From an uncultured Flavobacterium sp. (GTDB lineage: Bacteria > Bacteroidota > Bacteroidia > Flavobacteriales > Flavobacteriaceae), in the NCBI GenBank assembly GCA_964535705.1, contig CAZHVE010000001.1, positions 56,960-120,959 on the forward strand: DNA of 64,000 nucleotides. The letters are read 5' to 3'. Positions 23,974 through 29,409 of the stretch are shown piece by piece (positions within the stretch are counted from its first letter, which is position 1; every line of letters starts with the position of its first letter). Position numbers and translations under genes: made by a program. The notes below the pieces were generated by a model. It was not told the DNA's origin, ran no database searches, and saw only the letters and a list, made by a program, of their open reading frames with translations.

Positions 23974-24047
23974 GGCCTTGTGGCGCAACTGAATAGCGCA
24001 CTTGATTACGGCTCAAGAGGTTACTGGTTTGAATCCAGTCAAGGTCA
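23974..24047 (+). tRNA. tRNA-Arg(ACG)
   Basis: Acceptor GGCCTTG/CAAGGTC, anticodon arm CTTGA-TTACGGC-TCAAG, T arm ACTGG-TTTGAAT-CCAGT; no encoded CCA. Confidence 0.95.
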
Positions 24048-24067
24048 CAAATAAATACTACTATAAG

Positions 24068-24263: not shown

Positions 24264-24833
24264 ATGATGGACTATTTCCTAGATATTGAATACAACAACC
24301 TTACTTACGGCGAGGAAGAAGTCAATTTCAAGGAATTCGAATGTTGCACATTCAATTACTGTGATTTTTCGCAATGTGTGTTTCTGGCCGTCACTTTTAT
24401 CGATTGTGTTTTCAATGATTGTAATTTCAACGCTGCCAAAATCAATTATGTGGCGCTGAGAACGGTGACTTTCAATCGTTGCGAGATGAAAGAAGTCAAT
24501 TTTGCCATGTGCGACAAATTGATTTTCGACATTGCCTTTACCCATTGCTTGCTGGATTTCTCCAAGTTTTACACCTTAAAGCTCAAAGGCACTTCCTTTG
24601 AGCATTGCAGCCTTATAGCCGTTGATTTCATGAGCGCCGATTTAACCGAAGTCGTTTTTGACCGTTGCGATTTGTACCGCTCAGAATTTGCCAAAGCCAT
24701 TGCCAACAAAGCTAATTTCAAAACCAGCTACAACTACACCATTGACCCCACTAAGACCAAAATCAAGAAAGCCGTTTTTGCTTTGGACGGTTTAAAAGGA
24801 CTTTTAACAAAATACGAGGTAGTGGTGGAATAA
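24264..24833 (+). CDS. Pentapeptide-repeat protein
   Basis: Regular F/L-x-x-C/A-x-F pentapeptide periodicity over about 170 aa. Confidence 0.9.
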   Translation: MMDYFLDIEYNNLTYGEEEVNFKEFECCTFNYCDFSQCVFLAVTFIDCVFNDCNFNAAKINYVALRTVTFNRCEMKEVNFAMCDKLIFDIAFTHCLLDFSKFYTLKLKGTSFEHCSLIAVDFMSADLTEVVFDRCDLYRSEFAKAIANKANFKTSYNYTIDPTKTKIKKAVFALDGLKGLLTKYEVVVE

Positions 24834-24883: not shown

Positions 24884-24916
24884 TTTGAGACTTATAAGAT
24901 AAATTTGATATATTTG
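24884..24916 (+). promoter_or_regulatory. Consensus Bacteroidota promoter facing the cassette array (Pc-like)
   Basis: TTTG(24884-87)-N21-TATATTTG(24909-16). Confidence 0.55.
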
Positions 24917-24923
24917 GACTGCA

Positions 24924-25011
24924 ATCCGCTAAGGAGTAGCGACAACCTAACCAATTTTGGGTCTATAATCGCTACTTTATAGCGAGTATATACAAGTTTA
25001 CAAGCAACCCT
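24924..25011 (+). repeat. att-like site 1 (truncated attC or attI-like)
   Basis: CGCTAAGGAGTAGCGA...TCGCTACTTTATAGCG stem followed by core GTTTACAAGCAACCCT; no left TAAC box. Confidence 0.55.
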
Positions 25012-25118
25012 AAGAGAACTGCAAAAAAGAAAATTATTGCTAAAATTTAATTTTTATCATAAGTCGAATATGCAAACTAAATTTTACGATATTTACCAAA
25101 ATATAAGATTTAACAAAA

Positions 25119-26063
25119 ATGTACAATACTGTCCCAGAACAACTAAGAAAATTAGCAATTGAAAATGTTTTTAGTACACCTACCTATAAAAATTGTTGGA
25201 AAATTTGGCAACCAGAAATTATAAGACTCTTAGGAAATCACTATTCTGAAAATGAAATTTTAAATCTAGGTGACAATCTTTCAGATATATTCAAGTCAAC
25301 TGGAGGTGGCGGAAGAGGTCAAGGGGAATTATCAGCAAGCGGAACAGCTTGGGAATCTTTAGTTTGTTGGTATATTAATCTTTGTACAGCAGGAAGCAGA
25401 GTTGTCGCCATAAAAAAAATGAGTATTGTTCCTAAAGCAATACAAGATGCAATAACGGTGAATTATGGTAATTTTGCTTGTAATACCGAATCTGATATAA
25501 CAATTATTGTCTTTCCTGATTTACCCGAGTATAATACTGATGTAAATCAATTAAATATTTTAAATAGTAGCGGAAATCAAATTTTGCCAATTTTAAAAAA
25601 CAAATTTAATCTTGAACTAACAAATCATTTAGCAGAAAGAGATTTCAATCTATTTGAAATCGGAATTATTCAATGCAAAACAAACTGGAATGACAACGCT
25701 CAAATACCAATGTTATGGGATATGATTTATTCTGCTGGCGGTTTTCGTGGCAGAAATATAACAATAGGTAGAAATGGTTATAATATTCAAAATGCACAAA
25801 GTTTTAGTTATTCGTTTGTAACAGTTCCATCAAACGCAAATACTATTTACAAACCTGATGGAGTAGCAGTTAAGCGAGTTACTAATTTATCTGGAGGAAA
25901 CTATTGGGGTAATCCAAGTGTACAAAATGTTGCCAAATCATTAAAAGAAATTTTTACTAATAATTTCAATTCTGGCTCAAGAACTGGATTGAGAACTGAC
26001 ATTCGAACAGCAATTCCTGAATTGACAGCAAACAATCCATTGTCTTATTTTGGTCTTTATTGA
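25119..26063 (+). CDS. Putative type II restriction endonuclease (PD-(D/E)xK-like)
   Basis: Convergent with and overlapping a C5-MTase; candidate catalytic motif WES...ESDI...IIQCK. Confidence 0.6.
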   Translation: MYNTVPEQLRKLAIENVFSTPTYKNCWKIWQPEIIRLLGNHYSENEILNLGDNLSDIFKSTGGGGRGQGELSASGTAWESLVCWYINLCTAGSRVVAIKKMSIVPKAIQDAITVNYGNFACNTESDITIIVFPDLPEYNTDVNQLNILNSSGNQILPILKNKFNLELTNHLAERDFNLFEIGIIQCKTNWNDNAQIPMLWDMIYSAGGFRGRNITIGRNGYNIQNAQSFSYSFVTVPSNANTIYKPDGVAVKRVTNLSGGNYWGNPSVQNVAKSLKEIFTNNFNSGSRTGLRTDIRTAIPELTANNPLSYFGLY

Positions 26064-28282
26064 ATATTTTTCAATATTTCCATAGCAACCGCTCTAGCCA
26101 TTAGTGGGGGAACTGCGTTCCCTACTAATGTAAATTGGGGAACTTCAAATTTACGTTTATTTCCACCTGTTGAGCGTTTTCCTTGAAAAACAAAAGAATC
26201 ATCAAATGATTGAAGTCTAGCCATTTCACGAACAGTTAATGCTCTTGGATTTGAATAATGAATATAATCATCCGCTATAGTCATAATTGTAGAACTTTGT
26301 CCTTCGGGTTTTAATACAGTATAACTTCTTTTGTCAGATTCTAAACCTATTTCTTTAAGATTCGACTTTGCAGATTCATAGTTTCCTGATTTCAAAATAA
26401 CATTTAATCTTTTAATTACATCACTATTTTGCTTGCTTGTTTTATGATTTTGTAATGGTGCAACTAAATGAGCTAAGGTATTTTCAAGTTCTTCAAAATT
26501 CCTAACATAAAACGGATTCTTTGCATTTGCAAATCGTCCATTTAAACGTCCTTTTTTTGACCATTCAGAATAACTTAATCCATCATTATCATTTGGCTTT
26601 CCATCAATGTTTCTTTTTTGAATTAATTTTTTCATTTTTTCAGTAGAGCCATTGTATTGAGCTTTTAAATCTATTTTTTCATAATCAAATCTTTCATCAT
26701 CATTTCCGACAAAATCCAAATCATAAATAGCTTCAAAAACATTAACCTTTTCATTGTGTTTTACGGTTGCTGGAACATCATTTATAAGTTTTTGGTCTTT
26801 TCTACAACCAATAAATAAAACCCTTTCACGGTTTTGTGGCACTCCATAATTTGATGCTAATGCAACAAATGGTTGCTCAATATTATATAGTCTTATTTTT
26901 GATAAAATAGTTTCAAATTCTTTCTCTTTATTTGCTTTTGTCACAAATAAATCGAGTCCTTTTACACATTCATCAAAAGAGTAATCAAATATTTCAAGTG
27001 CAGTAATAATTTGTTTTACGTCATCTAAAAAAACTTCATTTGGTTTTAAATTATTAAAAGCGGTATGAATTTTATTTATAATTGTTTCAGACTCTATTGA
27101 AGTTAAAAAAAAATCAAAATCATCAGCAAAAAAATCGTTGTCCACATTTGAAAATGCTTTTTCGTTTATAACTTTTTTTCTAATATATTCAAGTTCTTTA
27201 ACACGTTTTAAAAGATTAAATCCGTGACGAATTGTGCTTATGTTTTTATCTGTTTTACTCGTCTTGTAATCAACAATTTTAGGTGTTAATAATCTGAATT
27301 TATTTTCTAAATTATTAATGTAATTGTTCTTTAAAGCATCAAGTTCTTTATCAGTAGATTTCTCAAATTGCAAACGCAAATTGTAACACTCCAAAATAAA
27401 AGATTGCTCAATTTCAACTTTTTTAAGTTGAGCAACAAAATGAATAAGTTGACTAAATTCTTTTAAATCTACAATCGATCTAATTTCTTGCAAAATCATA
27501 TCTTTAATTTTGCCTTGTTCTTTTGTCAAAATTCCTTTGACATTTTCCATAACAAAATACTTAGGACGTAATTGTCTTATTACTTTTAAATAATGTGCAA
27601 ATAAATCATCTTTTTTATCAAATTTTTTTCTTTTACCAGCCAAACTAAAACTTTGGCAAGGTGGACCGCCACAAACAATATCAATCTCTTTATCTCCTAT
27701 TTTTTTTAAAAAATTATCTAAAAAATCTGGCTCTGTAATGTCTTGACGAAGAAATTCAGCATCTAAACCTAGTTGGTAATTATATCTTGCCAAATGCGTA
27801 AGTTCACAATTTTCATTTATATCACTACCTAATCTAAAATCATAATATTTGTTTCCGTATTCAGCTTGAAGAAAGCCTTCGCTAAATCCACCCGCACCAG
27901 CGAATAAGTCCACAAAAGTAATTTTAGATTTCTTTTCATATTCAGTTGAAGGTTCTGAAACAATATTAATATCAGTGTTTTCTCTTCTACTATTAACCAA
28001 CGAAGCGATTTTTTCTTTAATTTTTTTATCCGTAAAATTAGAATGTAATTCAGTTTCAAAATATTTTTCAACTTCTTGTTTTAAAAAATTTAAAAACTTA
28101 TTTATTGACTTATGAGAATATTCGGAATCCTTTACCAACTGATTGGTATTATCCCAATCTTTCTTCATTATCTTTTCACCAGTTGCAACTTTGATTTGCA
28201 AATCTTTTTGACGCAATACCAAATGAATTGGAAATCTTTTGCTTTTATCTTCTTTATCGAGGTAGAACTTAACATTTATCAT
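26057..28282 (-). CDS. dcm: DNA (cytosine-5)-methyltransferase with N-terminal integrase Arm DNA-binding domain
   Basis: FVDLFAGAGG (I), GGPPCQSFS (IV), ENV (VI), YGVPQNRER (VIII), LTVREMARLQSF (IX), VGNAVPP (X). N-terminus VKFYLDK...PIHLVL...KVATGEKI...WD...IN..L is Arm-DNA-bind_5-like. Confidence 0.9.
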   Translation of the reverse strand: MINVKFYLDKEDKSKRFPIHLVLRQKDLQIKVATGEKIMKKDWDNTNQLVKDSEYSHKSINKFLNFLKQEVEKYFETELHSNFTDKKIKEKIASLVNSRRENTDINIVSEPSTEYEKKSKITFVDLFAGAGGFSEGFLQAEYGNKYYDFRLGSDINENCELTHLARYNYQLGLDAEFLRQDITEPDFLDNFLKKIGDKEIDIVCGGPPCQSFSLAGKRKKFDKKDDLFAHYLKVIRQLRPKYFVMENVKGILTKEQGKIKDMILQEIRSIVDLKEFSQLIHFVAQLKKVEIEQSFILECYNLRLQFEKSTDKELDALKNNYINNLENKFRLLTPKIVDYKTSKTDKNISTIRHGFNLLKRVKELEYIRKKVINEKAFSNVDNDFFADDFDFFLTSIESETIINKIHTAFNNLKPNEVFLDDVKQIITALEIFDYSFDECVKGLDLFVTKANKEKEFETILSKIRLYNIEQPFVALASNYGVPQNRERVLFIGCRKDQKLINDVPATVKHNEKVNVFEAIYDLDFVGNDDERFDYEKIDLKAQYNGSTEKMKKLIQKRNIDGKPNDNDGLSYSEWSKKGRLNGRFANAKNPFYVRNFEELENTLAHLVAPLQNHKTSKQNSDVIKRLNVILKSGNYESAKSNLKEIGLESDKRSYTVLKPEGQSSTIMTIADDYIHYSNPRALTVREMARLQSFDDSFVFQGKRSTGGNKRKFEVPQFTLVGNAVPPLMARAVAMEILKNIQ

Positions 28283-28284
28283 TT

Positions 28285-28339
28285 TACGGACGTTTTTACG
28301 GATACGGACAAATTTACGGACAAATTTTAAATACACAAG
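28285..28339 (-). promoter_or_regulatory. MTase promoter overlaid by four TACGGA direct repeats
   Basis: Repeats at 28285, 28297, 28303, 28315 (last two are a perfect 12-bp tandem TACGGACAAATT). Minus-strand CTTG-N19-TAAATTTG with the -7 element at 28309-28316. Confidence 0.7.
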
Positions 28340-28399
28340 AAAAAAAGGATATATTTTTGAAAACTATAAATTAAAACAAGTAGATTTGAAGTAAATAAA

Positions 28400-28548
28400 G
28401 GGCGGCTTGTAACAGCGCCTACAAAAAATTGGCGGTTCAGTGCTTCGTATGACAGTTTTGTGGTCTAACAAACATTTATTCTTCGTATGAACATTTGTGG
28501 TAAAAATCGCCAACTTCTTGCAGCAGCAACCCGTTACCAGTAATTTTT
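28400..28548 (+). repeat. attC-like site 2
   Basis: GTAAC...GTTAC ends; arms CTACAAAAAATTGGCGGTT / AATCGCCAACTTCTTGCAG form an imperfect hairpin that pairs better on the bottom strand. Confidence 0.7.
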
Positions 28549-28622: not shown

Positions 28623-28871
28623 ATGGGACGTAACACATCAGTTTCTTTAGGAGACTATTTTGAAAATTTTGTTGATAATACTGTTTCTGAAGGCAGATTT
28701 AAAAATGCAAGTGAAGTTATTCGAGCAGGTTTAAGATTATTGGAAGAAGAAGAAAACAAAATAGTTGCTCTTAAGAAAGCAATTAGCGAAGGTGTTGAAA
28801 GTGGATTTGTTGAAAATTTTAATCCTAAAAAACATCTTGAATTACTAAAAGCCAAAAAACGAAATGGCTAG
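28623..28871 (+). CDS. parD: ParD-family antitoxin (RHH)
   Basis: NTSVSLG...GRFKNASEVIRAGLRLLEE motif. Confidence 0.92.
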   Translation: MGRNTSVSLGDYFENFVDNTVSEGRFKNASEVIRAGLRLLEEEENKIVALKKAISEGVESGFVENFNPKKHLELLKAKKRNG

Positions 28872-29163
28872 ATACATTCTTACCAACAAAGCTGTTGAAG
28901 ACTTATCAAAAATTTGGGAATATACATATGAAGTTTGGTCAGAGAATCAAGCTGACAAATATTATTTTGAGTTATTAGTTGATTGTCAAGAATTGGCTGA
29001 AAATCAATCTTTAGGTAAAAATTATAATGAAATAGAAAAAAATATTTTTGGTTTTAAGTCTAGTCAACATCTTATTTTTTATAGAATACTGAATACAGCA
29101 AAAATAGAAATTATTAGAATTTTGCACTCAAGAATGGATTTGAAAAATAGAATTCAAGAATAA
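28864..29163 (+). CDS. parE: RelE/ParE-family toxin
   Basis: LTNKAVEDLSKIWEYT...W...QADKY...IIRILHSRMD. Confidence 0.92.
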   Translation: MARYILTNKAVEDLSKIWEYTYEVWSENQADKYYFELLVDCQELAENQSLGKNYNEIEKNIFGFKSSQHLIFYRILNTAKIEIIRILHSRMDLKNRIQE

Positions 29164-29304
29164 AAAACTACTGGTAATCCCCGTTTGAAGCAATTGCTGC
29201 AATTGCTTAAACCAGTTGTCGTTTTCCGCTGGAAAATCTTATCTTAGCAGGAAATAATGGTTCACGAAGCCGCTACACTGGCTTCAAGCCGCGAAACGTT
29301 AAAC
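29163..29304 (+). repeat. attC-like site 3
   Basis: Begins at the parE stop: CTACTGGTAAT...CGTTTGAAGC ... GCTTCAAGCCGCGAAACGTTAAAC. Confidence 0.65.
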
Positions 29305-29409
29305 AATCCTCCCGTCTTCCATTGTAATAATCCTATTGGTTCTTTTGGCAAAATCAATATCGTGGGTGACAATCAACAAAGTTTGGTTGTTTTCTTGGGT
29401 CAGTTTTTT
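29299..29409 (-). pseudogene. 3' remnant of a LolD/MacB-type ABC ATPase
   Basis: Minus strand KKLTQENNQTLLIVTHDIDFAKRTNRIITMEDGRIV* (H-loop VTHD). Confidence 0.75.

Follow-up and report, generated by a model that had tools for sequence, protein, structure and literature searches.

An N-terminal Arm domain of the tyrosine-integrase type is fused to a C5-cytosine DNA methyltransferase in an uncultured Flavobacterium sp., and the methyltransferase most likely represses its own promoter through this domain, which would occupy an array of direct repeats lying over the promoter. From sequence comparisons, we give this reading a probability of roughly 0.7. The gene, referred to here as the Arm-MTase gene, was analyzed in a window of 64,000 nucleotides, by which we mean the whole stretch of DNA under analysis, and occupies positions 26057..28282 on the minus strand. 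Coordinates below are on the minus strand unless otherwise given.

Organization of the Arm-MTase

The gene was assigned by its open reading frame, translation, Pfam matches, and motifs. The first-pass annotation had described about 100 residues joined to methyltransferase motif I through the linker IVSEPSTEY in one open frame, and this was confirmed by a stop-free translation of 741 amino acids, which starts with MINVKFYLDK and carries the linker at residues 107 to 115 and motif I (FVDLFAGAGG) at residues 123 to 132. Residues 119 to 741 constitute the C5-methyltransferase (PF00145, E value of 1.8e-52). Its class (PF00145/TIGR00675) was assigned by a profile score above the cut-off and by motifs I, IV, VI, VIII, IX, and X in order, and the fold gave Z scores of 15.8 to 18.9 against C5-methyltransferases in structure comparison. 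Motifs I, IV (PCQ, residues 208 to 210), VI (ENV, residues 246 to 248), VIII (QNRER, residues 483 to 487), and IX-X were invariant or nearly so in 57 homologues.

The catalytic part with motifs I to VI (residues 119 to 270; 27473..27928) was delimited by PF00145, and motif VIII, the variable (target-recognition) region, and motifs IX-X (residues 466 to 741; 26060..26887) were delimited by homologue alignment, motifs, and fold. Between motifs VI and VIII lies an all-helical insertion of about 195 amino acids (residues 271 to 465; 26888..27472; AF2 pLDDT of 73 to 93; dN/dS of 0.072), which is present in every aligned family member and holds the invariant-rich stretch DYKTSKT...IRHG. The insertion matched no known family in Pfam or the PDB, and an integrase core-binding domain at this place was rejected, with an hhalign probability of 0.15%. 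The variable linker (residues 101 to 118; 27929..27982), which includes IVSEPSTEY, was 11 to 83% identical among homologues, with a pLDDT below 50 at residues 101 to 110.

An in-frame GTG upstream of the ATG would give a frame of 759 amino acids. Because the spacing between the upstream repeat motif and the ATG is not frame conserved across 67 loci (37, 15, and 15 loci by remainder modulo 3), the GTG start was ruled out, and the ATG at 28282 is the likely translation start. Methionine is absent between residues 39 and 245. An independent study yielded a contig that covers positions 24998-28516 with 32 differing letters and zero gaps, and since it takes in the whole cassette ungapped, the fusion is not an assembly artefact.

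Identity of the Arm domain

The resemblance of residues 1 to 100 (27983..28282) to the Arm-DNA-bind_5 domain of Bacteroidota integrases was examined by Pfam, hhalign, and structure prediction. In the window protein, PF17293 (Arm-DNA-bind_5) matched residues 10 to 76 with 16.3 bits for the whole protein and 20.8 bits (E value of 5.9e-4) for the N-terminal piece, and both scores fall just under the gathering cut-off of 22.6 bits. Nine of 10 diverse homologues passed this cut-off (24.5 to 38.6 bits), with the tenth at 22.4, and precomputed PF17293 annotation was found on 26 of the best 120 homologues. Alignment of 57 family Arms with 10 integrase-type proteins by hhalign gave a probability of 99.7% over 100 columns; this comparison was not blind, as the 10 proteins had been found with the Arm domain itself. 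Neither an integrase core-binding (SAM_5) nor a catalytic (PF00589) domain was matched in the Arm-MTase at an E value of ≤1 in Pfam, which agrees with the first-pass annotation. Altogether, profile comparisons confirmed the N-terminal residues, about 100 in number, as an integrase-type Arm-DNA-bind_5 domain.

A search of a 50% library with the N-terminal domain returned 54 proteins. Among the 23 that were scanned, five were complete Arm_5 + SAM_5 + Phage_integrase proteins of 404 to 425 amino acids with 31 to 36% identity, and three further Arm_5 + SAM_5 combinations were present in shorter records. When the family Arm profile was run against 301 genomes of the phylum, four Arm-MTases ranked first, followed mostly by frames of 400 to 470 amino acids in 62 of the 301 genomes. 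In a tree of 55 rows, the placement of 20 methyltransferase Arms as one group among integrase Arms (support of 90/91) was neither shown nor rejected.

The AF2 model of the Arm (pLDDT of 86.9) comprises a three-stranded sheet (residues 3 to 8, 17 to 25, and 28 to 38), a helix at residues 57 to 77, and a second helix at residues 85 to 103. This matches the layout with three beta strands and a single helix published for the PF17293 domain, which was defined for the Int-CTnDOT subgroup (10.1101/542381). Foldseek and VIA-align searches with the model gave no significant structural match (best Z score of 5.0), with the AP2 domain 6sy0 (Z score of 4.2) among unrelated rows, and these structure searches turned up no solved relative of PF17293. 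When the PDB was searched by sequence, neither the Arm by itself nor a profile of it returned anything relevant. Atlas features of the Arm suggested PF17293 clusters, at 0.86, as a lead only.

Distribution and selection

The best 120 database homologues, including a few entries of the window's own sequence, were 87 to 100% identical, and all 120 carried the Arm. In a genus scan, the Arm-MTase was present in 13 of 401 genomes. A class scan with residues 270 to 741 alone found 13 family members in 401 genomes, all 13 of which begin with the Arm; the next-best methyltransferases (about 40% identity, 406 to 407 amino acids) had no N-terminal extension. The plasmid and phage collections searched held no close relative of the methyltransferase or the nuclease-like partner. 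The fusion is not strain specific and occurs across Bacteroidota.

Pooled over 29 disjoint pairs, dN/dS was 0.068 for residues 1 to 100 and 0.030 for the catalytic core, with dS of 1.1 to 1.5, near saturation. These ratios indicate that the Arm is under purifying selection, and neither a fusion unique to this strain nor translation from a start downstream of the domain fits the data. Selection by itself does not show regulation, because the insertion and the variable region have ratios (0.066 to 0.072) equal to that of the Arm. Disrupted copies were also seen: one locus (L066) has lost the start of the Arm and retains an Arm-less methyltransferase frame of 635 amino acids, another (L079) has a transposase-like insertion just past the first Arm-MTase codons, and two (L009 and L010) have truncated methyltransferases, with L010 additionally missing one repeat and the -7 box.

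A direct-repeat array over the predicted promoter

Repeat and locus comparison revealed an array that the first-pass annotation had not noticed. This candidate operator (28284..28323) lies between a predicted TTG-N19-TAnnTTTG promoter and the ATG of the Arm-MTase gene and consists of four direct-repeat units with the core GTCCG, arranged in tandem as two pairs whose period is 12 bp. Pair one comprises 28323-28314 and 28311-28302, and pair two comprises 28305-28296 and 28293-28284. Between the first two repeats lies the predicted sigma-A -7 box TAAATTTG (28309..28316), which follows the Bacteroidota consensus TAnnTTTG at -12 to -5 (PMC9723704), and a predicted -33 TTG (28336..28338) is 19 nt upstream of this box; the published promoter consensus is TTG-N17-23-TANNTTTG (10.1101/172254). 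Transcription is predicted to start at about 28304, giving a 22-nt leader, so that pair one straddles the -7 box and pair two spans +1 to the ATG. Counting of spacings in 67 loci placed a TTG exactly 19 nt upstream of the -7 box in 46 loci and in 0 to 4 loci at each other spacing from 12 to 30, with only mild enrichment at 19 nt in the host genome (20/372). Three loci carry G at -10, which is nearly absent from Flavobacterium johnsoniae promoters (PMC6847099). Comparison of the RNA run X15 with the window gave short, scattered contigs only, with no transcript end among them.

Four repeat units were present in 49 of 67 full-length loci, and 8 had only two units. In 25 loci anchored by the protein, the first repeat pair was retained within two mismatches in 23, even with an Arm of 33% identity and unrelated flanks, and the -7 box was present in 21. 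The other two were a truncated gene with three units and a locus with an intact Arm-MTase (L188), in which the array has been replaced by what we take to be an IS-like end. An exact scan of GTDB with a 19-mer from the array found at least 119 loci: 67 adjoin a full Arm-MTase, 3 adjoin a partial one, 37 have the Arm visible on short loci, and 3 of the remaining 12 listed are broken or cut Arm-MTase copies. Thus, 110 of the 119 listed matches directly precede the Arm of a methyltransferase, and 5 are without explanation. In a phylum sample, the 19-mer was present in 4 of 401 genomes, and these are also the four that carried the Arm-MTase among the 301 searched by profile. Five viral matches to an 18-mer lay in or beside unrelated genes and were taken as chance.

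Because the 19-mer partly coincides with the promoter box, some conservation is expected without a repressor; the GTCCG cores lying outside the box are also conserved. This co-conservation suggests that the Arm likely binds the arm-type repeats sequence specifically. The first-pass annotation had proposed the Arm as the regulatory module of a restriction-modification (R-M) system. Part of this proposal gained support, in that a co-conserved array covers the predicted promoter of the methyltransferase gene itself, and part did not: no operator copy was found before the window's convergent partner gene, and control of that nuclease-like gene is therefore unsupported. As a separate observation, the plus-strand reading of 28310-28323 shares nine letters with the SsoII palindrome (PMC6100179), which is probably a coincidence, as the domains differ.

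Likeness to integrase arm sites

The upstream regions of Arm integrases were compared with that of the Arm-MTase. An exact repeat of ≥8 nt with a period of 11 to 12 was present within 200 bp upstream in 21 of 40 integrase-sized loci and in 13 of 25 once these were dereplicated, compared with 26 of 1,157 control host open reading frames (ORFs); starts were picked by script, and 4 of 44 loci had been dropped (L035, one masked, and two short). From these comparisons, the repeats of the Arm-MTase look like integrase arm sites. In Escherichia coli, the KplE1 integrase IntS represses its own gene, which has an arm site overlapping the -10 box, and single arm-site mutations left repression in place (PMC2951348). 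Gut viral contigs (L217-L289) contained an abundant tRNA-adjacent Arm integrase of 401 amino acids with its own tandem repeat of 12-bp period upstream.

In a Tannerella metagenome-assembled genome (MAG) (L035), the same 19-mer lies reversed between the 3' end of a tRNA-Lys gene and the start of an Arm_5 integrase. A second locus (L112) has the same tRNA-integrase junction with the 19-mer, and in a third (L087) the 19-mer is 35 bp from the 3' end of a tRNA-Arg gene. The L035 integrase was rejected as the donor, with an Arm only 22% identical (probability of 13%) and repeats facing the opposite way. Among the loci compared, of which two P0158 loci ended short of the upstream region, none held a donor integrase that combined a close Arm with GTCCG repeats, and the closest integrases carry repeat sequences other than GTCCG.

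Partner genes and the cassette

The convergent partner gene (25119..26063, plus strand) encodes 314 amino acids and overlaps the methyltransferase stop by 7 nt. Its family has invariant E79, D126, and Q185-x-K187, which we read as a PD-(D/E)XK-like motif, and fills the slot held by known restriction endonuclease families in other loci. From these two features, the protein likely belongs to an unnamed family of PD-(D/E)XK-type restriction endonucleases. Pfam, NCBIfam, PADLOC, and PDB searches gave no match, and Atlas leads to NgoMIV/Bse634I/BsaWI reached only 0.80 to 0.85, under 0.9. The family had 1,929 database matches, and its Atlas clusters also list Bacillota, Pseudomonadota, and phages.

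The first gene past the methyltransferase in the 67 loci was MvaI/BcnI related (PF15515 related) in 35, the 314-aa family in 15, Dazbog DzbA(-B) in 5, an unnamed gene with a GmrSD_N protein in 5, EcoRII-C-like in 3, another gene in 1, and not visible in 3. The partner was downstream and co-oriented in 45 loci, convergent in 19, and not visible in 3, and HhH-GPD glycosylase genes followed the methyltransferase in several loci. These counts point to an R-M or defence cassette with exchangeable effectors, for which the 19-mer is a near-diagnostic marker of a slot with varied cargo, including the unnamed nuclease-like family. In five loci (L045, L049, L055, L067, and L068), dzbA-dzbB lies directly 3' of the Arm-MTase, with no restriction enzyme there (PADLOC E values of 1e-105 and 1e-48 in L067). 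From the partner families only, the target site is tentatively placed in the CCWGG/CCNGG class. In a site-avoidance comparison, GATC, GGCC, and CCWGG/CCNGG were all depleted in the genome, and within-gene counts were small. Identity with F. psychrophilum M.FpsJVI or other enzymes was not established from the available portion of PMC11837570.

The two genes form a low-GC cassette shared with other strains (24998..28516), with a GC content of 0.27 to 0.31 versus about 0.36 around it. In three other studies, contigs matched the stretch between 24998 and about 28470-28520, without the flanks. Imperfect hairpin-like intergenic repeats at 28400-28545, 24900-25015, and 29170-29305 bracket the R-M and parDE pairs, and the other strains' contigs begin and end at them. 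These repeats, which to us resemble attC-like cassette ends, have copies in many Flavobacterium genomes and gave no Rfam match, as Rfam found tRNA only; only 6 of 65 cassette loci had a related copy upstream. The ParD-ParE toxin-antitoxin pair (28623-29163, plus strand) is divergent from the methyltransferase gene and does not travel with the cassette in the compared strains. A tRNA-Arg(ACG) gene (23974-24048) followed by a pentapeptide-repeat gene (24264-24833) borders the variable slot as its left host flank.

Discussion

In the reading that we favor, a Bacteroidota tyrosine-integrase gene would have passed on its entire 5' end, comprising the promoter, tandem arm-type sites, and an exon-like Arm-coding module, to a methyltransferase, once. 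When the gene enters a new host, its promoter would be free of repression and allow a burst of methyltransferase; Arm domains would then fill pair one and pair two and block RNA polymerase, so that repression of the gene would grow as the enzyme accumulates. A downstream co-oriented partner would share Arm control, and the window's convergent partner would have its own promoter outside this control, as with EcoRII.

Several other explanations were weighed against this one. The Arm may bind the array as an activator, as a two-state switch with one activating and one repressing pair, or in a way that requires a methylated genome, as for M.EcoRII. The two pairs are separable and the second is lost in part of the loci, and there is precedent in the dual action of C proteins and the methylation-dependent repression of EcoRII (PMC12707154). 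However, both pairs overlap the -7 box or fall downstream of +1, which are polymerase-blocking positions, and the promoter already matches the consensus and needs no activator; we consider such action unlikely. It is somewhat more doubtful that the Arm serves the enzyme, through non-specific DNA anchoring, stability, or processivity, while a host factor binds the repeats or they persist as promoter only. The dN/dS shared by the Arm, the insertion, and the variable region would suit this, as would the intact gene without an array in L188. In contrast, the array is tied to the Arm-MTase gene across many families of the phylum, its GTCCG cores are conserved beyond the promoter box, an Arm-less frame exists in L066, and the host genome holds the exact tandem pair a single time, which is not the pattern of a host-regulon site.

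The 19-mer at tRNA-integrase junctions and beside a tRNA gene, the patchy occurrence of the cassette in many different flanks, and the tRNA-Arg gene 4.2 kb from the array in the window raise the question of whether the repeats are working att arm sites, with an integrase elsewhere mobilizing the cassette and the fused Arm tying the methylase to recombination or gating it. A working att site is argued against because integrase-like ORFs were present in only 3 of 67 Arm-MTase loci versus 41 of 44 control loci (flanks of ≤5 kb). In addition, tRNA genes were called in only 2 of the 55 cassette loci that were scanned, one call lying within a predicted gene, and no second tandem pair was found elsewhere in 570 kb of the 67 loci, which leaves this explanation very unlikely. 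The weak Pfam score in the window strain would be expected of a functionless relic, an integrase fragment fused by chance, but a dN/dS of 0.068, retention in 13 of 13 members found by their C-terminal part, and persistence at 27 to 92% Arm identity in 56 homologues make a relic barely credible.

Autorepression through the Arm can be extended, speculatively, to a wider proposal that we hold with little confidence. An integrase autoregulation unit (promoter, arm sites, and Arm) may, through a single domestication, have become a portable control head for a methylase that is found phylum-wide and fronts interchangeable effectors (three unrelated restriction endonuclease types, Dazbog, and GmrSD-like). 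Elements that carry the same arm sequence and are integrated at tRNA genes are still extant, so they and the cassette might cross-regulate each other through shared sites.

R-M systems must time the methylase against the nuclease on entering a new host. In the fused-repressor solutions known so far, a small domain acts on a palindrome, and the Arm-MTase family appears to use an integrase arm domain on direct repeats. If true, this would be a clear case of a recombinase regulatory head domesticated as a transcription factor, and the Arm and array provide a precise candidate domain-site pair for PF17293, testable with a 105-aa protein and a 40-bp oligonucleotide. No paper describing the fusion was found in the open literature, the search covering neither subscription journals, REBASE, nor preprint supplements; among the papers found, only 10.1101/542381 contains both 'Arm-DNA-bind_5' and 'methyltransferase', in unrelated passages.

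Comparison with known systems

Among recombinases, the integrases of the Int-CTnDOT subgroup (Arm-DNA-bind_5 PF17293 + Phage_int_SAM_5 + Phage_integrase) have an Arm homologous to that of the Arm-MTase and, like it, tandem repeats of 11- to 12-bp period just upstream. KplE1 IntS likewise has an arm site over its own promoter (PMC2951348), as the Arm-MTase has repeats over its predicted promoter. Unlike these integrases, the Arm-MTase has no core-binding or catalytic recombinase domain and no second arm array, and an integrase or tRNA gene is rarely nearby. Among restriction systems, the commonest partner, directly 3' of the Arm-MTase, is related to the MvaI/BcnI-family and UbaLAI-like enzymes through PF15515, whereas the window's partner belongs to an unrelated, unnamed family; the portion of PMC5766183 available holds no description of a UbaLAI methylase with an Arm.

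The N-terminal domain of M.SsoII has a helix-turn-helix fold. Methyltransferases with fused repressor domains provide a precedent (PMC12707154; PMC6100179). In M.SsoII/M.Ecl18kI (CCNGG), two molecules bind through a 55-residue domain to a 15-bp palindrome between divergent genes (PMC6100179; PMC12707154). Like the Arm-MTase, these enzymes combine a C5-methyltransferase, an N-terminal DNA-binding domain, and a flexible linker, and their regulatory site lies over the methyltransferase promoter, as the candidate site of the Arm-MTase does over its predicted one. In contrast, the Arm-MTase has an integrase Arm of about 100 residues with a predicted three-stranded sheet, four direct repeats, a partner placed downstream or convergently, and a catalytic domain split by a 195-aa insertion, and the palindromic operator between divergent methyltransferase and endonuclease genes is absent from its loci. 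Autoregulation by M.EcoRII is limited to the methyltransferase gene and leaves the endonuclease gene unaffected, which fits the convergent layout of the window; EcoRII-C-like partners occur in 3 of 67 Arm-MTase loci, and the N-terminal domain of M.EcoRII differs. By analogy, the Arm-MTase would work like M.SsoII, M.Ecl18kI, and M.EcoRII, although its domain differs and its candidate operator consists of direct repeats.
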